A stretch of 64,000 nucleotides of DNA from Escherichia coli. Lineage in GTDB: Bacteria > Pseudomonadota > Gammaproteobacteria > Enterobacterales > Enterobacteriaceae. The stretch lies in the NCBI RefSeq assembly GCF_030013595.1, contig NZ_CP122768.1; one strand, given 5' to 3'. Below the pieces are notes generated by a model that saw nothing but the letters and a program-made list of their open reading frames with translations, was not told the origin of the DNA and did not search any database. Each line of letters opens with the position of its first letter. The stretch's first letter is position 1. A program made the position numbers and the translations under genes. Of this stretch, positions 4,107 to 19,360 are shown in pieces.

Positions 4107-4183
4107 GTTGGATCCTTACCGGTAAATCGTGCCGGTTAAAAGCGGCGTGAAGATGGGGATTCTTAAGTGGATAATGGTGCGCG

Positions 4184-4300
4184 CTGATGCCCTCACCCCG
4201 GCCCTCTCCCACAGGGAGAGGGAGAAAACCTGCGCCATATTCACCTCCGCGCTCAATCGGTCCCCTCGCCCCTTTGGGGAGAGGGTTAGGGTGAGGGGCA
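4184..4300. repeat. Inverted pair of GC-rich palindromic intergenic repeats (core CCCTCACCC..CCCTCTCCC-N4-GGGAGAGGG)
   Basis: Two units in opposite orientation at 4189-4224 and 4262-4298; the same family recurs 5 more times in the window. Confidence 0.85.
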
Positions 4301-4311
4301 AAGCGCGCCCC

Positions 4312-4611
4312 TCATTTCCCCTTCGGCGACAACTGCTTCACAATCATCGCCGCGATCCCAATCCCGTGCTGCTGCGCCAGGGTGTTACACAACTCATCGT
4401 CATAAAACCCCTGCATCATGCGCACCGAATCGCTGTTAAACGGGTTATCTTTCGAATCGAACAACTCGTTGGTTTTGCGCATCTCTTTGAGCATATTGCG
4501 TAAAAAAATCGCCTCAAACTGTTCGGCGGCCTGCCTGATATCATTGGCCTGAACCTTCGGCCCCATTAACGCATCGCTGCCGTCAATCCCGCCGCTGCCG
4601 TTAACTTTCAT
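4312..4611 (-). CDS. lfgJ: FlgJ rod-binding domain protein (no muramidase domain)
   Basis: 99 aa; motif FEAIFLRNMLKEMRKT typical of the FlgJ N-terminal rod-binding domain; lies between lfgI and lfgK. Confidence 0.8.
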   Translation of the reverse strand: MKVNGSGGIDGSDALMGPKVQANDIRQAAEQFEAIFLRNMLKEMRKTNELFDSKDNPFNSDSVRMMQGFYDDELCNTLAQQHGIGIAAMIVKQLSPKGK

Positions 4612-6596: not shown

Positions 6597-7382
6597 TTAC
6601 AGCGTCTGGCTGATGTACTGCAACATATCGTCCGCTGCCGACACCATTTTGGCGTTCATCTCGTACGCGCGTTGCACCGTAATCATCGCCACCATTTCGT
6701 TGACGATATCCACGTTCGAGCCTTCCAGTGCGTTGTCCTGCAAAGTGCCAAGCCCATCTTCGCCCGGCACACCTTCTGTCGGCTGACCGCTGGCGGCGGT
6801 TTCCAGATAGAGGTTGTCACCCTCGGCGGAAAGCCCCGCCGGGTTAGCGAAGTTAACCAGCGTCAGTTGCCCTAACTCGGTCACGTCGCTGTCGCCAGGT
6901 AAGATCGCCGTCACCGTGCCGTCCTCACCAAAAGCAACATTAGTCGCCCCCGCCGGAACGTCGATTTCCGGTTGTAACGGCAAGCCCTGCGAGTTGGTCA
7001 GCACGCCGTCGGCGTTCACCTGCAAGTTGCCGTCGCGGGTATAGGCGATATCGCCGTTGGCCTTTTGCACCTGTAAAAATCCCTGCCCCATAATGGCGAC
7101 ATTCATCGCGTTGTCGGTGGTTTCAACGTTGCCTTCGGTGAAGGTTTTCTGGGTGCCGACAATGCGCACGCCGCTACCGAATTGCAGCCCGGTCGGCATG
7201 ATGTTGTTCTGGTCGAGCATCGCGCCCGGCGCTTCCTGGGTCTGGTAGAACAGATCCTGAAACATCACCCGGTCGCGCTTGAAGCCGGTGGTGTTAACGT
7301 TGGCGATGTTGTTGGCAATCGCGCTCATTTCAGCATCCTGCGCCGAGAGGCCGGTTTTGCTGATCCATAGTGCTGCGTTCAT
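6597..7382 (-). CDS. lfgG: Flagellar distal rod protein FlgG
   Basis: 261 aa; N-terminal MNAALWISKTGLSAQDAEMSAIANNIANVNTTGFK. Confidence 0.9.
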   Translation of the reverse strand: MNAALWISKTGLSAQDAEMSAIANNIANVNTTGFKRDRVMFQDLFYQTQEAPGAMLDQNNIMPTGLQFGSGVRIVGTQKTFTEGNVETTDNAMNVAIMGQGFLQVQKANGDIAYTRDGNLQVNADGVLTNSQGLPLQPEIDVPAGATNVAFGEDGTVTAILPGDSDVTELGQLTLVNFANPAGLSAEGDNLYLETAASGQPTEGVPGEDGLGTLQDNALEGSNVDIVNEMVAMITVQRAYEMNAKMVSAADDMLQYISQTL

Positions 7383-7426
7383 GGTGGTAAATTCCGTATT
7401 GTTTTGGGCCGCGGTTGCCGGATGCG

Positions 7427-7447
7427 GCGTGAACTTATCCGGCCTAC
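7427..7447. repeat. REP (palindromic unit) element
   Basis: gccggatgcggcgtgaacttatccggcctac matches the canonical E. coli REP consensus. Confidence 0.75.
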
Positions 7448-7456
7448 GATGTGCGG

Positions 7457-8194
7457 TTACGAGCCGCGCAATAAGCGGTTGCCCGCGTCGCTGATATCTT
7501 CGGCGGTTTTCATCATCTTGATTTGCGCTTCAAACTGGCGGTTCATGGCGATGGACGACATCATCTCGCTCACCGCCGAGACGTTGCTGCCTTCGAGAAA
7601 ACCGCCACTGACTTTGATATTTTCATCGCGCTGGGCCGGAACGCCGTCGGCAGTTATCAGCATCCCTTCAGGATTTTTCGCTAGGTTAGCAACCGGAATA
7701 TCCACCAGCTTCAGGCGGTCGATATCCATCGTCGCGGTCACGTCGCCGTCATCGGGCGTCACCGACAGCGTGCCGTCGCTGCCAAACGAGGCGATGGCGT
7801 TCGGCGGCAGAATGATCGGCCCGTTATCCCCCTGCACCAGATTGCCGTCGATGACCAGTTGCCCCTGGTCGTCCTGCTGAATGTTGCCGTTGCGGGTATA
7901 CACTTCGTTGCCGTTTTTATCCTGCACCGCAATGTAACCCGCGCCCTGAATCGCCACGTCCAGCGGGCGTTCGGTTTTCTCCGCTACACCCGTGCTGTCG
8001 TTCACGCCGCTGGCCCCTTCCTGCGCCATATAGCGCGTGTCGAAGCCACCGCCTTTCACCTTGTCGTTGGTCGCCATCGCCATATCGGCACGAAAACCAT
8101 TGGTGTTGACGTTCGCCAGGTTGTTGGCGCTGATCTGCTGCTCGTACAGGGTCTGAGAAGCACCGCTCAGGGCGGTATAAATCAAACGGTCCAT
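7457..8194 (-). CDS. lfgF: Flagellar proximal rod protein FlgF
   Basis: 245 aa; rod-family N- and C-terminal motifs. Confidence 0.9.
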   Translation of the reverse strand: MDRLIYTALSGASQTLYEQQISANNLANVNTNGFRADMAMATNDKVKGGGFDTRYMAQEGASGVNDSTGVAEKTERPLDVAIQGAGYIAVQDKNGNEVYTRNGNIQQDDQGQLVIDGNLVQGDNGPIILPPNAIASFGSDGTLSVTPDDGDVTATMDIDRLKLVDIPVANLAKNPEGMLITADGVPAQRDENIKVSGGFLEGSNVSAVSEMMSSIAMNRQFEAQIKMMKTAEDISDAGNRLLRGS

Positions 8195-9396
8195 TACATT
8201 GCCTGGAACAGCGCGTCATCGAGCTGCGTGCTGGTAGCGATAACTTTGGTGTTGGCCTGATAGTTACGCTGGGCGGTCATCAAGTTGACCAGTTCGCTGG
8301 TGATATCGACGTTAGAGCTTTCGAGCACGCCGGACGACAGCGTGCCGCAGGTGCCGGAGCCGGGAACGCCAATCAGCGGGGTGCCGGACTCGCCCGTTTG
8401 TACCCACGCGGTGCCGCTCACTGCCTCCAGGCCGTTTTCATTCGGGAAAGTCGCCAGCACCACCTGCCCCTGCAACATGCGCTCGCCGTTGCTGTAGGTG
8501 GCGTAAACTTTGCCATCGTCATCAACCTGCACACCGTTTTGCGTTGCGGAGGCGTAGCCGTTGGCAGCGTTGGTGGTGACCGAGAAGTCCGAGCCGTATT
8601 GCGTACAAGTGGTGTAATCGACGGTTAAGTCGATGGGTGCGGCGGCGTCGGTCTGAAACTCAATGGTCTGCGGTGTGGTTGGCGAGGTCAGCTTCCCGGT
8701 ATTCGGGTCGAAAGTTAAGGTCGTCGCCGGAACGCCAGTCTGCTGCTGACCGTCGAAGGTGTACTGCACTTCCCAGGTGTTTTCGCTGGTTTTGGTGAAA
8801 TACTGGCATACCGAGTGTTCGTTACCTAATGAGTCATACACCGTGGTGGTGTAGCTGTCGGTGTACGAGCTGCTGTTGGTCGGGTCGAACGGTACGGTGG
8901 TGCGATCGATAGCTTCATCGCTGGCGTTGAAGTTAGCGGTAAAGGTCAGGCTGCTGCTGGCCTGCGCCGGGATATTGCCGGTTTTGATCTGGATATCGGT
9001 GACCGTACCGGTTTGCAGAGTGCCCGTGTCATCGACCGGATAACCCTGTAAATAAGCGCCCGAGGCGTTGACAATATAGCCGTTTTTGTCGGTTTCAAAC
9101 GATCCGGCGCGGGTATAAGAAATGTTGCCCGCGCTGTCGCAGGTCACAAAAAAGCCATCGTTGTTAATCGCCAGATCCAGCGCGTTACCGGTGGAGACCA
9201 GCGAACCGCCGCGCGAAATGCTTTGCGCGGTGCCTGCCACGCTGACGCCCATCGCCTGACTTCCGGCATACATGGCTGAAAACTGGGTGGTCATCGACTT
9301 ATAGCCTACCGTTCCGGCGTTGGCGATGTTGTTACTGATCCCGTCGAGCTGTTCGTTAACGGCATTCAGCCCCGTTGCGGCAATTTCATAACTCAT
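8194..9396 (-). CDS. lfgE: Flagellar hook protein FlgE
   Basis: 400 aa; N-terminal MSYEIAATGLNAVNEQLDGISNNIANAGTVGYK. Confidence 0.9.
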   Translation of the reverse strand: MSYEIAATGLNAVNEQLDGISNNIANAGTVGYKSMTTQFSAMYAGSQAMGVSVAGTAQSISRGGSLVSTGNALDLAINNDGFFVTCDSAGNISYTRAGSFETDKNGYIVNASGAYLQGYPVDDTGTLQTGTVTDIQIKTGNIPAQASSSLTFTANFNASDEAIDRTTVPFDPTNSSSYTDSYTTTVYDSLGNEHSVCQYFTKTSENTWEVQYTFDGQQQTGVPATTLTFDPNTGKLTSPTTPQTIEFQTDAAAPIDLTVDYTTCTQYGSDFSVTTNAANGYASATQNGVQVDDDGKVYATYSNGERMLQGQVVLATFPNENGLEAVSGTAWVQTGESGTPLIGVPGSGTCGTLSSGVLESSNVDITSELVNLMTAQRNYQANTKVIATSTQLDDALFQAM

Positions 9397-9442
9397 TGTT
9401 TCGTCCTGTTAATTCAAATTTTGACAGCGTGCCCGTTGTTTT

Positions 9443-9521
9443 GCCGGATGCGGCGAACGCCTTATCCGGCCTACAAAACCATGCAGTTTCATGTAGGCCT
9501 GATAAGCGAAGCGCATCAGGC
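9443..9521. repeat. BIME: two inverted REP elements
   Basis: gccggatgcggcgaacgccttatccggcctac followed by inverted gtaggcctgataagcgaagcgcatcaggc. Confidence 0.75.
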
Positions 9522-9537
9522 AATTTGGCACCGGACA

Positions 9538-10251
9538 TCACGCCACATCACTGTCGGCATCGGGTACGCCAAACTGGCTAATCATGGTGAACGGCACTTC
9601 GCCCACGCCTGCAACATTGAGCACCGGAGAGCCGCCGTCGAGCGGGATGCGTACATCTTCCACTTCGCCGGAAACTTCAATCGGCACCTCTTCTTCCCCG
9701 GTGTTGGTCACCACCGAGACGTCGTAATCACCCGGCGGGATACCGTAATCCGCCGGATTAATCGAGAAATCCACCTGGCCTGGCCCGACGGACGAACTGC
9801 CTTCCGGGATCAGCGACACCGTATAGTCATCGCCTGCGGCATCGGTAAAGTGGAGATCGGCGGTGGTACAGGCGTCGTCAAGCGTGGCGCGACCATTAAT
9901 GGTCTGGTCGCTCACCTGCAAGGCGGTGGTCTGCACCATAATGTCGTCACCCACCAGGTTGCCGAGCGCCATTACCTGAATGTTGCTCATCAGCACCGCG
10001 TTGGTGTTGGCCTGCACGCTCATCTCTTCCATCATCGCCACCTGCGCCATCGACGAAAGCTGGTCGATGTATTCGGTGGCGTCAGTCGGGTCGGTCGGGT
10101 CCTGGTTTTGGATCTCGGCGACAAACAGCGTCAGGAAGGTATCGACGGGCGAGCTATCGCTGCTGCTTGTCGTGTCGCTGGCCGCCACGTTGTTGCTTTC
10201 CGCCGTGGCGGTCGGCTGCGGCGATTGCGCATTCAGCACCAAGGTATTCAT
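9538..10251 (-). CDS. lfgD: Flagellar hook assembly/capping protein FlgD
   Basis: 237 aa; N-terminal FlgD motif FLTLFVAEIQNQDPTDP. Confidence 0.9.
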   Translation of the reverse strand: MNTLVLNAQSPQPTATAESNNVAASDTTSSSDSSPVDTFLTLFVAEIQNQDPTDPTDATEYIDQLSSMAQVAMMEEMSVQANTNAVLMSNIQVMALGNLVGDDIMVQTTALQVSDQTINGRATLDDACTTADLHFTDAAGDDYTVSLIPEGSSSVGPGQVDFSINPADYGIPPGDYDVSVVTNTGEEEVPIEVSGEVEDVRIPLDGGSPVLNVAGVGEVPFTMISQFGVPDADSDVA

Positions 10252-10682
10252 CAGGCTTCTCCCAGTTTCAGCAAACTTTGCTGCATACTTTTCACGTTGT
10301 TGAGCACATCGACATTGGTTTCGAAATCGCGCGAGGCCGACATCATGTCCGCCATCTGTTCCACCACGTTGACGTCGGGATACCAGACATCCCCGTTAGC
10401 ATCCGCCAGCGGCGAATGCGGTTCATAGCGTTTCACCGCCCCGCCGGTTTGCAGCACGTCCTGCACCTGCACGCTGGCACCATCGATCGCATGGCGATGC
10501 GTTCCCGCCAGCAAGCTGTGGTGATACACCGCCGCAAACACCGGGCTGCGCGCTTTATACGCCTGTGCCTCGCTGCCGGCAGGTGCATTGGCATTCGCCA
10601 GGTTACTGGCAACGGTATTCAGACGTAGCGTTTGCGCCGTCATCGCCGAACCGGAAATCTGATAGATATCAGTAAATGACAT
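10251..10682 (-). CDS. lfgC: Flagellar rod protein FlgC
   Basis: 143 aa; MSFTDIYQISGSAMTAQTLRLNTVASNLANANAP. Confidence 0.9.
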   Translation of the reverse strand: MSFTDIYQISGSAMTAQTLRLNTVASNLANANAPAGSEAQAYKARSPVFAAVYHHSLLAGTHRHAIDGASVQVQDVLQTGGAVKRYEPHSPLADANGDVWYPDVNVVEQMADMMSASRDFETNVDVLNNVKSMQQSLLKLGEA

Positions 10683-10684
10683 GC

Positions 10685-11020
10685 TTATTTCCCTTCAATG
10701 GCCTCTCTGATGCCGCTGATTTGCAGATTCAGAAAGGTCAGACTGCTTTGATAATCCATACTATTTTGTGAAAACCGCGCCTGTTCACTGTTCAGCTCCA
10801 CGGTGTTGCCATCTTCCGACGGCTGCATCGGCACGCGGTACTGGACATCCACCGCCGCGTTATTTGCCCGTTGCATCTCCCTGGCAAAATCAATATCTTT
10901 AGCCTTGAAATTTGGCGTATCGACGTTCGCCAGATTCGCAGTCAGTAGCTCGGTCCTCTCAAGACGTAACTTCACTGCCTGCGGATGCACTCCCAATGCT
11001 TGTTGAAAACTGATCCCCAT
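10685..11020 (-). CDS. lfgB: Flagellar rod protein FlgB
   Basis: Start set at the internal ATG (11020) because the predicted sigma-54 promoter lies at 11057-11072; an upstream ATG at 11050 is the alternative; motif LANVDTPNFKAKDIDF. Confidence 0.8.
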   Translation of the reverse strand: MGISFQQALGVHPQAVKLRLERTELLTANLANVDTPNFKAKDIDFAREMQRANNAAVDVQYRVPMQPSEDGNTVELNSEQARFSQNSMDYQSSLTFLNLQISGIREAIEGK

Positions 11021-11056
11021 TCTCTGCGTCACTCCTGCTTCAATCCGCATACGCTA

Positions 11057-11072
11057 AGCAATCGCTGTGCCA
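11057..11072 (-). promoter_or_regulatory. Sigma-54 (-24/-12) promoter for the lfgB operon
   Basis: Minus strand reads TGGCAC-AGCGA-TTGCT, an exact match to TGGCAC-N5-TTGC, about 35 nt upstream of the lfgB start; a sigma-54 activator (lafK) is encoded in the locus. Confidence 0.6.
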
Positions 11073-11101
11073 TTTTTTAAGTGACTGATGAGAAAGGGTT
11101 T

Positions 11102-11839
11102 ATGAGTTTTCAATTTTGCAGGCGGAAGTTTTATTTCCTCCTGGCGCTGACCTTACCGGGCTACGCCGCCGTCCACCCCGTGCAACACAGCGCGCGGGAA
11201 CAAGTCAACGCCCAGGTACTGAATGCCGCGAGCCAGGAAATTGAATCGCTGGCGCAACAGCGGCGCTGGCATGACTATCGCTACACCTTTAAGGTCTATA
11301 TTCCCTCGCAGATTGCGACCGCCGCCCCCTGTGCGACTACACCCGGCGTCACGCTCACTTCGCCTGCGGAAATCACCCTCAACCGGATGAACTTCACCGT
11401 CAGTTGCCCGCAAAGCTGGCAGATGAACGTGGCGGTGCGCCCGGATGTTCTGGTGCCGGTGGTAATGGCGAAGTCACTGGTTGCCCGCGACACGCCGCTC
11501 ACGGCAAATGATGTGGAGTTGAAGCCCTACAACGTCAGCGCCCAGCGCCGCAATGTGTTGATGGATCCCGATGACGCGATTGGTTTCAGCAGTAAACACG
11601 CGCTGCAACCGGGCAGGCCCATCACCAAAGAAGAGCTGGTTTCGCCAGTGCTGGTCGAACGCGATCAGCCGGTGATGATTGTTTACCAGAGCGCGGGGAT
11701 CACCGCCTCGATGCCCGGCGTGGCGCTGAAAAATGGTCGCAAAGGCGAGATGGTGAAAGTGCGTAACGCCAGCAGCCAGCGGGTCATCAGCGCGATGGTG
11801 GCGGAAAGCGGCGTGGTAACAACGGTAAGCGCGGAGTAA
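11102..11839 (+). CDS. lfgA: Flagellar P-ring formation chaperone FlgA
   Basis: 245 aa with signal peptide, divergent from lfgB; ATG at 11102 preceded by agaaaggg. Confidence 0.8.
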   Translation: MSFQFCRRKFYFLLALTLPGYAAVHPVQHSAREQVNAQVLNAASQEIESLAQQRRWHDYRYTFKVYIPSQIATAAPCATTPGVTLTSPAEITLNRMNFTVSCPQSWQMNVAVRPDVLVPVVMAKSLVARDTPLTANDVELKPYNVSAQRRNVLMDPDDAIGFSSKHALQPGRPITKEELVSPVLVERDQPVMIVYQSAGITASMPGVALKNGRKGEMVKVRNASSQRVISAMVAESGVVTTVSAE

Positions 11840-12026
11840 TTTGCTGTAATACCGCGTAGCATATGTATGACTAGCTCCCAATATTCTGACTTTCTGACAA
11901 ATTTCATTGTGTATTTTGGATAATTATTGAGCACTCAATCACTACTGTTTAAATATCCAGATGATAACTATTTCATCTGGGTCAAATGAGTGATATTGTA
12001 TCACCAATAAGACCTACGGGGGTGCT

Positions 12027-13451
12027 ATGTCTGAATTTGAATTGCTCGTGAAAGATCTTCTTTTAAAATCAGAAGAAGACGAGAAAAAGCGACAAGAAAA
12101 AGATCGAGAATTAATTTCAAAGGTTCTTGAAATCTATGATCAAAAATATGTTGCAGAACTCCTACGAAAAGTAGGAAAAAATGAATGGAGCAGAGAAACA
12201 CTTAACCGTTGGATAAATGGTAAGTGTAACCCTAAACAATTAACTTCTGCTGAGGAAACTTTACTTCGAAAGATGCTTCCAGAACCTCCCGAACATCATC
12301 CTAACTATACATTTCGTTTTATTGATTTATTCGCAGGGATTGGTGGTATTCGTAAAGGCTTCGAAAATATTGGTGGGCAGTGTGTTTTTACTAGCGAATG
12401 GAATAAAGAAGCGGTAAGAACCTACAAAGCTAATTGGTTTAATGATGAACTAAATCATAAATTTAATCTTGATATACGAGAAGTCACTTTAAGTGATAGA
12501 GATGATGTTTCCGAAATGGAAGCCTATAATCATATAGACAAAAATATTCCAGATCATGATGTCCTTCTGGCCGGTTTTCCATGTCAGCCCTTTAGTCTGG
12601 CTGGGGTAAGCAAGAAAAATTCTCTGGGGCGTGCACATGGTTTTGAATGTGAGGCACAAGGAACACTATTTTTTGATGTCGCTCGAATTATTAAATCAAA
12701 AAAACCAGCTATTTTTGTGCTTGAGAATGTGAAGAACCTTAAAAGTCATGATAAAGGTAAGACTTTTAAAGTCATCATGGAAACACTCAATGAATTAGGG
12801 TATGAAGTCGCCGATGCTGGTGTGACTGGCTCAGATGATCCTAAAATTATAGATGGAAAACATTTTTTACCCCAACATCGTGAGCGTATAGTGTTGGTAG
12901 GATTTCGTAGGGATCTAAATATTCACAAGGATTTCACGTTACGAAATATTAACCGCTTTTACCCTCAAAACAGGCCAACATTTGGTGAATTATTAGATCA
13001 TGATGTTGACGACAAATATATTTTGACTCCAAGGTTATGGGAATATCTTTACAATTATGCAAAAAAACATGCAGCAAAAGGAAATGGATTTGGTTTTGGT
13101 TTAGTGGATCCTAAAAATCCAGATAGTATCGCACGAACGCTGTCTGCTCGTTACCATAAAGATGGCTCTGAAATACTGATCGATCGTGGCTGGGATAAGG
13201 CTGTCGGTGAAATCGATTTTAGTAATCCAGCGAATCAAGAGAATCGACCAAGAAGACTGACACCTCATGAATGTGCCAGGTTAATGGGTTTTGAAAAACC
13301 AGGGGGAAGACCTTTTAGAATACCTGTATCAGATACTCAAGCTTATAGACAATTTGGGAACTCAGTTGTTGTGCCAGTATTTGAAGCTGTAGCAAGATTA
13401 CTAGAACCGTACATACAAAAGGCTGTCAGCATGCAAGTTATTAACGATTAA
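12027..13451 (+). CDS. DNA (cytosine-5)-methyltransferase, Dcm / M.EcoRII-like
   Basis: 474 aa; C5-MTase motifs [40 protein letters not shown]; close to E. coli Dcm along its length; AT-rich codon usage unlike its neighbours. Confidence 0.9.
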
Positions 13452-13475
13452 TAATAATTAACTTTCACTATTGTG

Positions 13476-13497
13476 AGGCCTTTTTTATTAAAGGCCT
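13476..13497. terminator. Hairpin between the convergent methyltransferase and restriction enzyme genes
   Basis: aggccttt-tttatt-aaaggcct: 8 bp perfect stem in an AT-rich context. Confidence 0.5.
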
Positions 13498-13538
13498 CTA
13501 AATATATAATCATAAGTTATTATAAGTATACTTTTATA

Positions 13539-14744
13539 TTATATAAAATCTTCATACAGCGTTATTAACTGTGTGATAAAACCCTCTAACGTTAATAATC
13601 CATCCCTGATTTCCTCCGGATATTTTTTATGAAGAGGGGAAGGTACAACCAAGGTGACACCTTCAGCTCTCATTTCGTTAAATTGAGCAACTGAGACACC
13701 CTCTTGTAAGGTAAACAAATATATTTTGTTGATTTTATTTGCTTCATTGAGTGCCTGACGCCACCGATCCTTACATGTTGTTTTTACAGCAAGCATACGG
13801 AGTTTTTCTCTTGGAAAGTGATCATCATGGTAAGCTGCCGCTGATGGAAAAAGAAAATCGGGTTTCTTTTTTCCTTCAGTAATACATTGAGTAGCAAAAT
13901 GATGCAGTCCATGCTCAATAAAAATTTGCTCAAGATGTAGCTCCAGTGATTTCCCGGCTCGAGATTTTCTTCGATTACTAACAGAGTTAGCCATAGCTAT
14001 AAAATCATCTACAGAACCAAACCCTTGACGGATGATGTCCAGTACGTGAATTTCTTCAACCATTAGAAAGAGATCATATTCAATACGGCGGCGTTCTAAA
14101 AGTTGGTCATCTGGACTGGTTACGCCTGTTGGGTAATAACCCGCAGCATATTGAATAATCTCTAAGCCAGAAGGAAAGCTATGTTTCCAGCTTTCCGGAA
14201 TAACATATTCCTTTTGAGAGATTTTTGGCCTTGATGCGAGTACACCAAGTATTTCACTGGCAGGCCCAAACATTAAAGTTCCAGGAATGATCTCCCCAAT
14301 AGCTGATTCCAGTACATCCTCTTCTTCTGGGCTAACACAAACCCATACATCAACACTTTTGCTGTCTCTCCCTGGCTCATGTTCAAACGCAAGCACAGAC
14401 AAAGCACCTGTATTTTCCGGATCCTGTAGGGGACTGCCAGCCCCCCACCGAGTGATGCGTTTTTCATTTCTTGTTTGCCCGAAATACTTATTATTGTAGT
14501 AAATAGCGCGAACCTCACTGTCTACACATTCATGAGAGGAATAAGTTGCGCGCAATAAAACCGAAGGATTTTTTTCTGACGTATGATCTATAGATGGGAA
14601 AAGTTCAGCGACGATACCAGAAGGGATATATACCCCCACTTGATGCCCTCCTGTTGCACCAGTGTCGTTTGCTGAAAGACGTTTAATATAGAGATAGTTG
14701 TTACCACCGACCTTATCAAGCAGCCAATCTTGTAATCCTGACAT
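13539..14744 (-). CDS. Type II restriction endonuclease, EcoRII family (expected target CCWGG)
   Basis: 401 aa; N-terminal YIKRLSANDTGATGGHQVGVYIPS and the remainder match my recollection of EcoRII; convergent with the Dcm-like gene as in EcoRII systems; AAGGA ribosome-binding site upstream. Confidence 0.8.
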   Translation of the reverse strand: MSGLQDWLLDKVGGNNYLYIKRLSANDTGATGGHQVGVYIPSGIVAELFPSIDHTSEKNPSVLLRATYSSHECVDSEVRAIYYNNKYFGQTRNEKRITRWGAGSPLQDPENTGALSVLAFEHEPGRDSKSVDVWVCVSPEEEDVLESAIGEIIPGTLMFGPASEILGVLASRPKISQKEYVIPESWKHSFPSGLEIIQYAAGYYPTGVTSPDDQLLERRRIEYDLFLMVEEIHVLDIIRQGFGSVDDFIAMANSVSNRRKSRAGKSLELHLEQIFIEHGLHHFATQCITEGKKKPDFLFPSAAAYHDDHFPREKLRMLAVKTTCKDRWRQALNEANKINKIYLFTLQEGVSVAQFNEMRAEGVTLVVPSPLHKKYPEEIRDGLLTLEGFITQLITLYEDFI

Positions 14745-14797
14745 AAGACATCCTTATTTTTGCATAGTATCCGATTCAGATTTTTCCACATATCCAT

Positions 14798-14831
14798 CAG
14801 AACGACCAGAACGACCAGAACGACCAGAACC
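14798..14831. repeat. 9 bp tandem repeat (CAGAACGAC) x about 3.7
   Basis: cagaacgaccagaacgaccagaacgaccagaacc, 54-87 bp upstream of the restriction enzyme start codon. Confidence 0.9.
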
Positions 14832-14868
14832 AACATATCTGAACAAAAAGTAAATATGCGATAACGAT

Positions 14869-14896
14869 TAAAGTTTTGCCGCCTGTTAACCGCTTT
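14869..14896 (+). promoter_or_regulatory. Candidate sigma-28 (class 3) promoter for lfgMN
   Basis: Perfect -35 TAAAGTTT at 14869-14876; weak -10 (ACCGCTTT against GCCGATAA) after a 12 nt spacer; about 40 nt upstream of lfgM. Confidence 0.3.
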
Positions 14897-14934
14897 ACCG
14901 GAGTAACCCACCTAAATACCGAGACGAGGTTGCG

Positions 14935-15210
14935 ATGAAAATCACCCCGACTATGCCAGGCAATCGCCCGACAGTCACAACGGCAGGCTCCAGCCAGCCG
15001 CGCAAAGGCACGGCGACCACCACGACGCTAAGCGCCGACGACATTACCCAGGCGGGATTGCAGTCTGCCCAGCAAACACTGAACGACCAGCAAGAGAGCG
15101 ATATCGACAGCGATAAAGTGGCGCAAATGCAGGCGATGCTGGCCTCCGGCAGCCTGCAAGTGGACACCGAACAGTTAGCCAGCGACATGCTGAGTTTTTT
15201 CCAGAACTAA
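14935..15210 (+). CDS. lfgM: Anti-sigma-28 factor FlgM
   Basis: 91 aa, small acidic protein ending SDMLSFFQN; followed by the flgN homologue. Confidence 0.8.
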   Translation: MKITPTMPGNRPTVTTAGSSQPRKGTATTTTLSADDITQAGLQSAQQTLNDQQESDIDSDKVAQMQAMLASGSLQVDTEQLASDMLSFFQN

Positions 15211-15222
15211 GAGGCCGATGAA

Positions 15223-15651
15223 GTGAGTATCAGGTTACAACAGGTGAAGGCGTTGTTGCAGGGAATTCGTGACGATGACGCGCTGTATGATTCCCTGCGC
15301 GAACTTCTCCAGCGCCAGCGGATCTGCATGATTCGCCGCGCCAGCGAAGAGCTGCTGGCGGTAAACGAGGAGATAACCCATCACTATGAGCAGTTGCATG
15401 GGCATAGCCATCAGCGACACAGCCTGCTGAAAATGCTCGGTGTTAGCGTAAATCGTGACGGTCTGGCGCAGGTATTTGCCTGGCTTCCGGCGGTACAAAA
15501 AGCGGCAGCACAACAGTTGTGGCAACGCCTTGAGCAAAAAGCGGAACGCTGCAAAGCCTACAACGACAAAAACGGCGAGCAGTTGATTCGCCAGTATGAA
15601 TTTATTCAGTCTTTTTTAGGCAGCGAAGCGGATTTTCTGTACCAGGAATAA
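15223..15651 (+). CDS. lfgN: Flagellar export chaperone FlgN
   Basis: 142 aa helical protein; GTG start preceded by gagg. Confidence 0.75.
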   Translation: MSIRLQQVKALLQGIRDDDALYDSLRELLQRQRICMIRRASEELLAVNEEITHHYEQLHGHSHQRHSLLKMLGVSVNRDGLAQVFAWLPAVQKAAAQQLWQRLEQKAERCKAYNDKNGEQLIRQYEFIQSFLGSEADFLYQE

Positions 15652-15728
15652 CGACCATTCCTTCCCCCATCGCGGAAACGGATTTTCCGCCTGATTCACA
15701 ATCCTTTGTTTTTGATTATAAAAAATCA

Positions 15729-15745
15729 CGGCACGCTTATTGCAC
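15729..15745 (+). promoter_or_regulatory. Sigma-54 (-24/-12) promoter in front of the hypothetical gene and glycosyltransferase
   Basis: cGGCACG-CTTA-TTGCA matches TGGCACG-N4-TTGCA with exact spacing, 34 nt upstream of the ATG at 15779. Confidence 0.6.
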
Positions 15746-15778
15746 ATTCCGCAAAGTAATAAAGACTGGAAGCCACCT

Positions 15779-16609
15779 ATGAGTTTTATTGAATGTTACG
15801 AACCGGAATACGTGCGCAATTTTATGACGCAATATCCCGATTCGCCTTTGTACATCCGCAAGGTGTGGAAAAACGAGATTCGCCTGAGCCTGATGCTGAC
15901 AGAGCCAGAAAGTTGCGAAGCGGTGCTCAACGATGCCAGGGCCTTTGATTTACAGCTCACCTACCGCCCGGCGGAAGAAAATGCCGCAGAGCTTTCCGCG
16001 CGCGATGCGATAGTAAACCAGGTCATTTTGAGTACCCTCACGCTCCCCGATTTAACCCCAGAGCTTTCACTATATGCCATCGGGATTTTACTCTCCCGCG
16101 CCAGCAAAATGCCGGGCAGAGACGGAGATATTCTTGCCCGTTTGACGACGCTGCCGCAGGCGCTGGCCGATCATGCGAAAAAAGGCACGCTACAGGCACA
16201 GTTCGCCCAACTTCCGCCCGTGCCACAGCTGGCGCGTCACCTGGCCACGCTACTCGGGAGTTTTACGTTTGACTGGTCGATTTTGCCGGAAAGCCCGCGC
16301 AAAACTTCGCTGCCGTTGCAGATGCCTTTGCTGGCGCTACATGACGCCAACAGCGAAGCCCTGGTGCAACAGCAGCTTCAGGCTCAGTGGCAAACCACCT
16401 GGCAACAGCATTTTGCCACCGCGCCCTGGATGATGCGTAACTGGCTGATTTACCGCGTTTACCATGAGGTGATTGGACAGGCAGACGGAGCAGATTATTG
16501 CCCGCTGGTGTGCGATTTTTATCTTATCCGCACGTTAATCAGTTTTATGGACGCTGGATGGTTCTCCGCTGCGACAGGAGGATATTTTCGCCCTTTTTGC
16601 GGTGTTTGA
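15779..16609 (+). CDS. Hypothetical protein (Flag-2 accessory)
   Basis: 276 aa ORF from the ATG after the sigma-54 promoter; the 3' end may be frameshifted (see findings). Confidence 0.55.
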   Translation: MSFIECYEPEYVRNFMTQYPDSPLYIRKVWKNEIRLSLMLTEPESCEAVLNDARAFDLQLTYRPAEENAAELSARDAIVNQVILSTLTLPDLTPELSLYAIGILLSRASKMPGRDGDILARLTTLPQALADHAKKGTLQAQFAQLPPVPQLARHLATLLGSFTFDWSILPESPRKTSLPLQMPLLALHDANSEALVQQQLQAQWQTTWQQHFATAPWMMRNWLIYRVYHEVIGQADGADYCPLVCDFYLIRTLISFMDAGWFSAATGGYFRPFCGV

Positions 16610-16729
16610 ACGCTGGCGAGAGAGTGAAAATGCGCTGTTTATTCGCCAGCAAATTCAGTCGTTATGTGCGGCAGAGCCGCTGCTTTCAGCATTTTCGCTG
16701 CTGACGTGAGTCGCTCTGTGCGCGCTTTT

Positions 16730-16840
16730 CCCCTCACCCTAACCCTCTCCCCAAAGGGGCGAGGGAACCGATCGAGCACGGTGTTAAAATCGGCGCTGGT
16801 TTTCTCCCCTCTCCCTGTGGGAGAGGGTCGGGGTGAGGGC
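16730..16840. repeat. GC-rich palindromic intergenic repeat, composite copy (near-identical to 6460-6570)
   Basis: cccctcaccctaaccctctccccaaaggggcgagggaaccgatcgagcac ... ctccctgtgggagagggtcggggtgaggg. Confidence 0.85.
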
Positions 16841-16888
16841 ATCAGCACGCACATTCATCACATTCACCCCTTAACTCACCCAGACACC

Positions 16889-19360
16889 ATGCCAACACAA
16901 ACCATCATCAAAACACTCGCCACCCACCGCGAAAAACCGTTTGTCAGCGTCGTCACGCCAACCTGGAACCGTGGCGCATTCCTGCCGTACCTGCTTTATA
17001 TGTACCGCTATCAGGATTACCCGGCAGACCGCCGCGAACTCATCATCCTCGACGACTCGCCGCAAAGCCATCAACACATCATCGACCGCCTGACCAATGG
17101 CACACCGGAAGCCTTTAACATCCGCTATATTCATCACCCGGAAAAACTGCCACTGGGCAAAAAACGCAACATGCTCAACGAACTGGCGAGCGGCGAATAC
17201 ATCCTCTGCATGGACGATGACGACTACTACCCGGCAGATAAAATCTCCTGGACCATCGCCATGATGCAAAAACATAGGGCGCTCATCTCCGGCTCCGACC
17301 AGATCCCCATCTGGTACAGCCACATCAACCGCATTTTCAAAAGCCGCAGCTTTGGCCCGCATAACATCCTCAACGGCACCTTTTGCTATCACCGTAACTA
17401 CCTGAAAAAGCACCGTTACGACGACGATAGCAATTTAGGCGAAGAGAAAAGTTTCACCAACAATTTCAGCGTTAACCCGCTACAACTGCCCGGCGAGCGC
17501 ACGATTCTGTGTATCTCGCACAGCCACAACACCTTTGATAAAGACTTTATTCTCGGGGCCAGCACGCCTGTAAACGCGGCGCTTACGGATATCGTCCGCG
17601 ATCCGCTGCTCCGCAATGCTTATCTGAGTCTGCATAACGCCACTCATCACCAGGCGATCAACCATCAGGCGATCGATCAGATCGTTCTGCTGAATCTGGA
17701 TAAACGCCCGGATCGCTTACAACAGATCCGTGAAGAACTGGCATTGCTGCATATTCCACCTGAGAAGATCACCCGCCTTGCCGCCAGTGAAGATCAAAAC
17801 GGTCAACGGGGTCGCCGCCAGTCGCACTTGCAGGCGCTGCGCCTGGCGCAACAGCACGGCTGGCAAAACTATCTGCTGCTGGAAGATGACGCGGTTATTC
17901 TCAAGCAGGAGAAACATATTCAGGTGCTGAACACGCTGCTGGCGAGCCTGGCGAAAATTCCCTGGCAGGTGATGATCCTTGGCGGCGAAATTTCGCAAGG
18001 AACTATGCTAAAAAGTTTGCCGGGGCTGGTGCACGCGCGGGACTGCCGCAAAGTGTGCGCTTATCTGGTGAACAGCCGCTACTACCCGCAACTGGCGCAG
18101 CAGATGAGCAACGATGAGCACTCGCTGGAAGCCTGCTGGCAGCCGCTGCTACACGCCGACAAATGGCTGGCCTGTTACCCGAGCCTTTGTTACCAGCGAC
18201 CGGGCTTTAGCGATATCGAGAAAAAAGTCACCGACAACATTAGTCACTATTTCAATAAGTTACACGTAACCACCAAGCCATCCACGTTACCCATCGCCGA
18301 CACCATCGGCTTTTTTATGGAAACCTCATTCCACTACGCGCTGTATCGCCCAATCATCACCGCTCTACAGGCGCAGGGGGAGAGCTGCACGCTGGTGATC
18401 AACGACCGCGTGTTTAAACCGTTTCTGGATGAAATGCTGGAGACGCTAAAAAGCATCGACGACCCACAGCTTAAAGGTATGCGCTTGTCTGAGATGCAGG
18501 CACACGGCCAGCGGATGAAATGCCTGGTCAGCCCCTACCACACGCCCGCGCTCAATGGCCTGGCAGCGGTGAACGTTCGCGCCATGTATGGCTTAGCCAA
18601 AGAAACGTGGAACCACGCCGACTGGAACCGTTTTTATCAGCGCATTTTGTGTTACAGCCACTACAGCCAGCAGGCGCTGGCGCATTTCGGTAGCGCAAAA
18701 GTGGTCGGCAACCCACGCTTCGACGCCTGGCATAACGGCACGTTCGACCGCACTCTGCCGGAAAATATCCAACCCGATTCCTGTAAACCTACGGTGCTCT
18801 ACGCCCCTACGTTTGGCGCACTAAGCTCCCTGCCCCACTGGGCAGAAAAATTAGGCCGCTTAAGTGGCAATGTGAATCTGATTTGCAAACTGCACCACGG
18901 CACCTGCTCGCGCCCGGAAGAAACTGCATCGCTGGCACTGGCGCGCAGGCATTTAAAACGGCGCACCGACTCCGCCCGCCACACGCTGGCGCTGCTGGCA
19001 AAGGCCGATTACGTGCTGACCGATAACAGCGGCTTTATTTTCGATGCTATTCACGTTGATAAGCGGGTGATCCTGCTCGACTTTCCGGGCATGAGTGAAT
19101 TGCTCGACGGCGAGAAAAGCTACTCCACGCCGGAGAGCGCCGATCAGCAAATCCGCGAAATATTGCCGGTGGCTCATGATATGGCAGAGTTGCGTTACTT
19201 GTTGTCAGAGGCGTTTGACTGGGGGGCGGTGCAGACACGGCTTAAGGAGATTCGTCATCACTATTGCGATGCGTTTATGGATGGCAAGGCGGGAGAACGG
19301 GCGGCGATGGTGATTGTTGAGGCGCTGGCGGACAAGGAACCGTCAGGGATATGTCGATAA
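16889..19360 (+). CDS. Three-domain glycosyltransferase: GT2 + GT25-like + TagF-like CDP-glycerol glycerophosphotransferase
   Basis: 823 aa from the ATG at 16889 (the longer ORF from 16664 runs through the repeat). GT2: VSVVTPTWNRG, ILDDS, CMDDDD. GT25-like: IVLLNLDKRPDR, LLLEDD. TagF-like: GNPRFD, VLYAPTFG, LTDNSGFIFD. Confidence 0.85.
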   Translation: MPTQTIIKTLATHREKPFVSVVTPTWNRGAFLPYLLYMYRYQDYPADRRELIILDDSPQSHQHIIDRLTNGTPEAFNIRYIHHPEKLPLGKKRNMLNELASGEYILCMDDDDYYPADKISWTIAMMQKHRALISGSDQIPIWYSHINRIFKSRSFGPHNILNGTFCYHRNYLKKHRYDDDSNLGEEKSFTNNFSVNPLQLPGERTILCISHSHNTFDKDFILGASTPVNAALTDIVRDPLLRNAYLSLHNATHHQAINHQAIDQIVLLNLDKRPDRLQQIREELALLHIPPEKITRLAASEDQNGQRGRRQSHLQALRLAQQHGWQNYLLLEDDAVILKQEKHIQVLNTLLASLAKIPWQVMILGGEISQGTMLKSLPGLVHARDCRKVCAYLVNSRYYPQLAQQMSNDEHSLEACWQPLLHADKWLACYPSLCYQRPGFSDIEKKVTDNISHYFNKLHVTTKPSTLPIADTIGFFMETSFHYALYRPIITALQAQGESCTLVINDRVFKPFLDEMLETLKSIDDPQLKGMRLSEMQAHGQRMKCLVSPYHTPALNGLAAVNVRAMYGLAKETWNHADWNRFYQRILCYSHYSQQALAHFGSAKVVGNPRFDAWHNGTFDRTLPENIQPDSCKPTVLYAPTFGALSSLPHWAEKLGRLSGNVNLICKLHHGTCSRPEETASLALARRHLKRRTDSARHTLALLAKADYVLTDNSGFIFDAIHVDKRVILLDFPGMSELLDGEKSYSTPESADQQIREILPVAHDMAELRYLLSEAFDWGAVQTRLKEIRHHYCDAFMDGKAGERAAMVIVEALADKEPSGICR

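Follow-up and report, generated by a model that had tools for sequence, protein, structure and literature searches.

The window, that is the whole 64-kb stretch of Escherichia coli DNA analysed here, carries two convergent genes between lfgA and lfgM of a Flag-2 flagellar locus. One encodes a C5-cytosine DNA methyltransferase (M) and the other an EcoRII-type restriction endonuclease (R). These are the only two ORFs of the cassette (Table 1). Among annotated genomes, E. coli strain HCP5S3_I2 gives the best match, at 99.6%, on its chromosome. The surrounding 49 kb of that chromosome is Flag-2, with lafA, lfgL to lfgB, lfgA, lfgMN, the glycosylation region, lfiE-J, lfiM-R and lfhBA, and beyond Flag-2 lie yafL through fadE. 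An earlier note on this DNA had placed the two ORFs at the positions and in the convergent orientation given in Table 1, and had sited them between lfgA and lfgM. Both statements hold, as the FlgA model (TIGR03170) ends before the insert and the FlgM model (TIGR03824) starts after it. The note had also described a block of about 3 kb. The size is right, and the true extent of the insert goes slightly beyond the coordinates it gave. An Rfam search of 11500-15300 did not find a known RNA.

Table 1. Positions in the window of the insert, its parts and the neighbouring flagellar genes
Feature	Coordinates	Strand	Remarks
lfgA, FlgA homologue (TIGR03170)	11081/11102-11839		Upstream of the insert
Whole insert	11845-14864		3,020 bp, 38.2% GC; from alignment to the empty site (strain 118UI), boundaries the same in 12/12 carriers
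Insert left edge	11845-11944		No coding sequence; particular to the Flag-2 cassette lineage of E. coli
Conserved block upstream of M	11945-12026	+	Two palindromes and a ribosome-binding site; presumed promoter/operator
M, C5-cytosine DNA methyltransferase, M.EcoRII/Dcm type	12027-13451	+	474 aa
Spacer between convergent M and R	13452-13538		87 bp, hairpin inside
R, EcoRII-type restriction endonuclease	13539-14744	-	401 aa; N-terminal effector and C-terminal catalytic domain
Region upstream of R and insert right edge	14745-14864	-	Includes the perfect 9-bp tandem repeat CAGAACGAC, 14798-14830
Native region upstream of lfgM, kept intact	14865-14934	+	Begins CGAT-TAAAGTTT; ACCGCTTT 12 nt further on
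lfgM, FlgM homologue (TIGR03824)	14935-15210		Downstream of the insert; lfgN next

The insertion site

Alignment to the empty allele of strain 118UI shows that the insert begins 5 bp past the lfgA stop codon. The empty lfgA-lfgM spacer is 80 bp long, and 5 bp of it (GCAGG) are replaced by the insert. The alignment and a repeat scan found no target-site duplication and no terminal inverted or direct repeats at 11845/14864, and there is no transposase, integrase or other mobility gene in the insert. A transposon or IS origin is rejected on these grounds.

The right end of the insert lies 4 bp upstream of TAAAGTTT (14869), a conserved motif, and the 70 bp before the lfgM start codon are unaltered and conserved with the empty allele. 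TAAAGTTT matches the sigma-28 -35 consensus at 8/8 positions. The -10 consensus is matched by ACCGCTTT, 12 nt further on, at only 4/8 positions, and neither the upstream regions of lafA and lfgK nor loose patterns gave a convincing sigma-28 signature shared with other late genes of Flag-2. Since the -10 match is weak and no signature is shared, we say only that, judged by its sequence, lfgMN may keep its own promoter despite the insert. The earlier note had argued that the insertion separates lfgMN from the lfgA promoter. It is true that the insert lies between them, but the retained 70 bp make a separate promoter for lfgMN possible.

The methyltransferase

M scores 911.9 bits against the NCBIfam model of the Dcm subfamily (PRK10458, cut-off 710) and carries Pfam PF00145 (E=1e-78). 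The C5-MTase motifs are complete in alignments: FxGxG, PCQ, ENV, QxRxR and GNSV (as FGNSVVVPV). An N-terminal DNA_meth_N domain (PF18284) covers residues 28-84 (E=2e-26). Over residues 32-65, which fall in this DNA_meth_N / M.EcoRII repressor region, M and the plasmid enzyme hardly differ.

The identity of M to the plasmid M.EcoRII-type enzyme is 83%, and to chromosomal Dcm it is 68%. The identity between M.EcoRII and Dcm is also 68%, and both methylate CCWGG (PMC3874152). M.EcoRII is a closer relative of M than of Dcm, and with the specificity that M.EcoRII and Dcm share this points to the inner cytosine of CCWGG as the probable target of M. It must be noted that M is not followed by a vsr ORF. 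Its stop codon is followed by the 87-bp spacer and then by the convergent R. This implies that M is of the M.EcoRII type rather than a dcm-vsr copy. We rejected a duplicated dcm as the source of M, as the nucleotide identity is only 67%, vsr is absent and M is nearer to M.EcoRII.

The endonuclease

R can be aligned over its whole length to chain 1NA6, a crystal structure of EcoRII (E=4e-188). The N-terminal domain is EcoRII-N (Pfam PF09217, residues 16-164, E=4e-60) and matches PDB 3HQF (E=4e-74). The C-terminal domain is EcoRII-C (PF09019, residues 226-390, E=5e-70) and matches PDB 3HQG (E=5e-107), while Ecl18kI and PspGI match weakly. In the 1NA6 alignment D296, K321 and E334 of R correspond to D299 (in PDF), K324 (in AVKTT) and E337 (in LNEA) of EcoRII, which are its catalytic residues (PD...K...E). 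All three are conserved. PADLOC models label M and R as a Type II MTase and REase. The earlier note had named the pair a Dcm-like C5-cytosine methyltransferase and an EcoRII-family endonuclease, and the matches of both proteins fall inside those families.

R is 69% identical to plasmid-borne EcoRII. From this full-length identity we infer that R cleaves unmethylated CCWGG and needs at least two sites to do so. The identity is only 69%, and the specificity of R could have shifted from that of the characterised EcoRII.

Non-coding features of the cassette

Cassettes from four unrelated contexts hardly vary in the 82 bp upstream of M. The palindromes in this block are CCAGATGA-N8-TCATCTGG and GTGATA-N3-TATCAC. 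In M.EcoRII a repressor domain is fused to the enzyme, which acts as an autorepressor (PMC12707154). By analogy the near-invariant block upstream of M is likely its promoter/operator. For R, a consensus scan of 14745-14864 did not find a convincing sigma-70 promoter.

The earlier note had seen a hairpin between the two genes, and it is there. The arms are at 13469-13483 and 13490-13504. They contain a perfect stem of 9 bp, GAGGCCUUU/AAAGGCCUC (13475-13483/13490-13498), with a loop of 6 nt, and the fold has z-scores of -3.8 on the plus strand and -4.9 on the minus strand. The hairpin has no T tract, and a consensus terminator scan made no call there. It may be a bidirectional terminator.

At its two ends, over 100 bp on the left and some 72 bp on the right, the insert has sequence peculiar to the E. 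coli lineage of the cassette. The left edge does not align with the plasmid, prophage or Leclercia cassettes, and its conservation among carriers is 94.5-100%.

Horizontal origin

The earlier note had called the block AT-richer than the genes on both sides and had taken this as a sign of horizontal acquisition. The windowed GC content agrees: it is 0.34-0.43 across 11800-14800 against 0.50-0.61 on both sides (400-bp windows). The GC content of the insert as a whole (Table 1) compares with 57.3% in the 5 kb to its left and 54.0% in the 5 kb to its right. Acquisition from elsewhere is supported by this foreign composition, by the precise empty site in most genomes that have the junction (see below), and by homologous cassettes at other sites.

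R belongs to a large family: 7,848 proteins match at E<1e-30, and most of them come from the Enterobacterales. Outside R's own cluster the closest endonucleases have identities of 82%, 77% (Klebsiella oxytoca) and 76% (Leclercia). Enterobacterial plasmids carry the same convergent pair in 3,890 records, at 60-80% nucleotide identity, and on thousands of plasmids the DNA identity is about 70-74%. In K. oxytoca the convergent pair is in a P2-like prophage, between a gpA-like replication gene and portal/terminase genes. On the Leclercia chromosome it is between marC and a gntP-family gene. The related cassettes elsewhere are AT-rich too, with 40-49% GC. A collection of 100,044 species genomes was scanned for the left junction and for the block upstream of M, and neither gave a match. 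These scans yielded no donor and no member of this cassette lineage outside E. coli.

Distribution and selection in E. coli

The lfgA-lfgM junction is present in 1,278 of 5,426 complete E. coli genomes. It is contiguous in 1,250 of these and split in the other 28 (2.2%). A separate search for the full cassette also found it in 28 genomes, which we take to be the same 28. The comparison with other Flag-2 loci that the earlier note had called for thus gives a junction that is empty in most of them. No other type of insert was found at this junction in the 5,426 genomes.

The boundaries of the insert are identical in all 12 carriers that were retrieved, which points to one ancestral insertion. 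M and R are intact in all 12, at up to 4% nucleotide divergence. M has a dN/dS ratio of 0.04-0.11, and R one of 0.06-0.09 where dS exceeds 0.05. Purifying selection on M and R is as strong as or stronger than on the flanking flagellar genes.

The cassettes of the carriers are 96-100% identical to that of the window, but lfgA is only 93-95% identical and lfgMN 94-98%. In NRZ14408, 1190 and E700025 there are next to no mismatches between about 11600 and about 15400, and beyond that tract they become much more frequent. This near-identical tract is the footprint of recombination that carried the cassette together with short pieces of its flanks. The acquisition itself is old, not recent. In the two most distant carriers the dS of the cassette (0.10-0.17) approaches that of the flanks (0.12-0.23), which implies a long residence in E. 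coli without amelioration of the base composition.

Interplay with host Dcm

There are 187 CCWGG sites in the window, a count that none of 100 shuffles reached. This makes the chromosome a rich target, and one that has to be methylated. Of the 5,426 E. coli genomes 5,366 have a dcm-like gene, and a second M-like chromosomal locus was seen in all but one of the carriers, 27 of 28. This locus is almost certainly dcm. The earlier note had suggested that M would be a second Dcm-type enzyme if the host had dcm, and this is so for those 27. The one exception is strain DCE7 (NZ_CP090611.1), which has a single M-like locus and may be without dcm. Hosts that carry Dcm have no obvious need for M, yet M is conserved in them.

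Incoming DNA from Dcm-positive enterobacteria would already be protected, so any CCWGG barrier raised by the cassette would be limited to DNA without CCWGG methylation. The restriction barrier that the earlier note saw in the flagellar island has to be qualified in this sense. Nearly all E. coli are positive for a dcm-like gene, and the target would be non-Dcm-methylated DNA only.

Proposed explanation and alternatives

We argue that the cassette is a functional Type II restriction-modification pair (EcoRII-type, subtype IIE) that was acquired once, horizontally, in the lfgA-lfgM spacer and has no evident flagellar role. We put the probability of this at about 0.88. In this scenario a single horizontal transfer would have placed the pair in the 80-bp spacer of an E. 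coli Flag-2 locus. M would methylate the CCWGG sites of the host, and its N-terminal domain would probably repress M's own promoter at the conserved palindromic block. R would be autoinhibited by its N-terminal effector domain and would cut unmethylated CCWGG only once a second or third site is bound. Transcription of M and R would converge on the common hairpin. Vertical descent would have maintained the cassette in E. coli, and homologous recombination through the flanking flagellar genes would have moved it between lineages. lfgMN would probably still fire from the retained region upstream of it.

One can imagine that the cassette is mainly an addiction module, which stabilises Flag-2 by killing the cells that lose the island. 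EcoRII-type systems do cause post-segregational killing (PMC3874152), and E. coli often loses Flag-2 as a block (De Maayer et al., PMC6993521). The cassette is in the middle of the island, and in DCE7 there is a carrier that may lack dcm. However, Dcm attenuates the host killing that follows EcoRII loss (PMC3874152), and with a second M-like gene in 27 of 28 carriers the cassette should be a poor addiction module in most of them. It is also present at no more than 2.2% of Flag-2 junctions, and most strains must therefore keep Flag-2 by other means. We consider addiction as the main role unlikely.

A scenario that depends on particular strains can also be considered. The tandem repeat CAGAACGAC has 3.7 copies in the window and 1.7 in each of 12 other carriers examined. 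Its copy number could tune R or the divergent lfgM promoter, which would make restriction strain-variable or switchable, with host Dcm already damping the toxicity of the system; or else the cassette could act in the rare dcm-less carrier as an addiction module that locks in Flag-2. We find this quite unlikely too.

We consider it very unlikely that M and R form a remnant that is silent or in decay, in which R is unexpressed or inactive and M is a redundant second Dcm. The lack of a clear sigma-70 promoter for R in the consensus scan would fit a remnant, and host Dcm would render M redundant and R harmless. AT-rich DNA such as that of the cassette could also be silenced by H-NS. A remnant is not expected to look like this pair, however: the ORFs are intact in every carrier retrieved despite the divergence among them, their dN/dS is 0.04-0.11, and the catalytic residues of R are conserved.

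That M was co-opted into flagellar regulation, with read-through from the lfgA promoter coupling CCWGG methylation to Flag-2 or with lfgMN expression altered, is hardly credible: M is oriented as lfgA with no terminator predicted between them, and the cassette parts lfgMN from the lfgA promoter, but M keeps a presumed promoter/operator block that cassettes outside flagellar loci also have, nearly all carriers have a Dcm that methylates these sites already, and 98% of Flag-2 loci are without the cassette.

Comparison with known systems

The functional restriction-modification pair that we favour is most like the plasmid EcoRII system. Both are convergent pairs, an arrangement that is found in the plasmid pACN001 and also in K. 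oxytoca and Leclercia. R has both domains over its full length, and the residues D299, K324 and E337 of EcoRII are conserved. The 83% identity of M includes the DNA_meth_N/repressor region, and the block upstream of M is conserved. There are differences as well. R is only 69% identical and the DNA about 71% identical. The Flag-2 cassette is chromosomal and at a fixed site. The GC content is 37-41% against 48-49% in the plasmid system, and the spacer between the genes is 87 bp against 33 bp in pACN001. The edges of the Flag-2 cassette, with the 9-bp tandem repeat among them, are peculiar to its lineage.

Chromosomal dcm-vsr is the other system to compare. M belongs to the same PRK10458 subfamily as Dcm, has equal length and domain order at 68% identity, and presumably shares the CCWGG specificity. 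However, M is without a vsr partner, is paired with an endonuclease, is at another locus and has 37% GC where chromosomal dcm has 52%.

The cassette has been reported before. De Maayer, Pillay and Coutinho (BMC Genomics 2020, PMC6993521) describe EcoRII and Dcm as cargo of Flag-2 in 21 Escherichia strains. Their EcoRII (pfam09019) has 401 aa and 97.1% amino-acid identity, and their Dcm (PRK10458) has 474 aa and 98.6% amino-acid identity. Their supplementary table gives both cargo genes as confined to Escherichia. Their cargo and our cassette are the same thing, with no difference in kind. The restriction-modification cassette in Flag-2 is real and ordinary, and it was already published in 2020. 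What is added here is the exact junction, the evidence for a single origin, the spread by flank recombination, the estimates of selection, the shared upstream block and the co-occurrence with dcm. Of these, the junction, the single origin, the selection and the interplay with dcm are absent from the passages of the paper that were consulted.

Conclusions

With this cassette Flag-2 is confirmed as a place where cargo genes land. The cassette is also a clean natural example of a restriction-modification cassette without mobility genes that was inserted once and spread by recombination in its flanks. The significance beyond housekeeping is small, and the redundancy with host Dcm is the only mildly interesting biology. 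Host Dcm should neutralise the addictive value of the cassette and much of its defensive value, yet both genes are under strong purifying selection.

Divergence and insertions in Flag-2

The Flag-2 genes that flank the EcoRII-type restriction-modification cassette are unusually diverged among E. coli strains. We compared positions 7000-19300 of the window with the loci L003-L013. The nucleotide identity of lfgA is 93-95%, with a dS of 0.15-0.24, and identity drops to 87-88% on the 3' side of lfgN. Less divergence than this is expected of E. coli core genes.

The lysine-N-methylase/glycosyltransferase gap holds ISEc13 in two carriers, L009 and L013. These insertions are a further sign that Flag-2 tolerates insertions. 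The palindromic units upstream of the glycosyltransferase artificially lengthen the 5' end of an 898-aa ORF.

Compared with intact alleles, the flagellin lysine-N-methylase gene of the window is frameshifted by one additional T (+1). In the genome closest to the window the gene has the same frameshift and is annotated as 'frameshifted'. The window's Flag-2 locus has probably lost flagellin methylation.

Repeats, insertion elements and genes (window coordinates unless a locus is named)
Feature	Location	Context
GC-rich palindromic repeat units, E. coli intergenic repeat type (e.g. GCCCCTCACCCTAACCCTCTCCCCAAAGGGGCGAGGGGAC)	4180-4320	upstream of lfgK
GC-rich palindromic repeat units, E. coli intergenic repeat type	16640-16860	upstream of glycosyltransferase
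Perfect 9-bp tandem repeat CAGAACGAC	14798-14830	54-86 nt upstream of endonuclease start codon
Flagellin lysine-N-methylase (FliB-like) gene	15779-16709	directly 3' of lfgN; frameshift at 16543
ISEc13 (IS4-like)	L009 9962-11334	between lysine-N-methylase and glycosyltransferase, Flag-2 variable region
ISEc13 (IS4-like)	L013 9965-11338	between lysine-N-methylase and glycosyltransferase, Flag-2 variable region
EcoRII/methyltransferase pair related to cassette	L015 2397-10485 (Klebsiella oxytoca contig JAEHKL010000013.1)	cargo of P2-like prophage

Variation and relatives of the cassette

The 9-bp repeat 5' of the endonuclease gene has 3.7 copies in the window versus 1.7 in all 12 other carriers examined. 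When complete E. coli genomes were searched, the cassette match spanned about 18 bp less than the query in every one of the 28 carriers.

The endonuclease of the Klebsiella oxytoca pair is 77% identical to that of the window, and next to the pair lie an HNH gene and a gene for a Dam-type methylase. It is cargo in a P2-like prophage, therefore temperate phages also carry EcoRII-type cassettes.

Only one of the 28 carriers, DCE7 (NZ_CP090611.1, L013), has a single methyltransferase-like chromosomal locus. Its genome is 4.4 Mb, and dcm may be absent from it. If DCE7 does lack dcm, it would have no CCWGG methylase other than the Flag-2 enzyme, and in this strain the cassette would be truly addictive.
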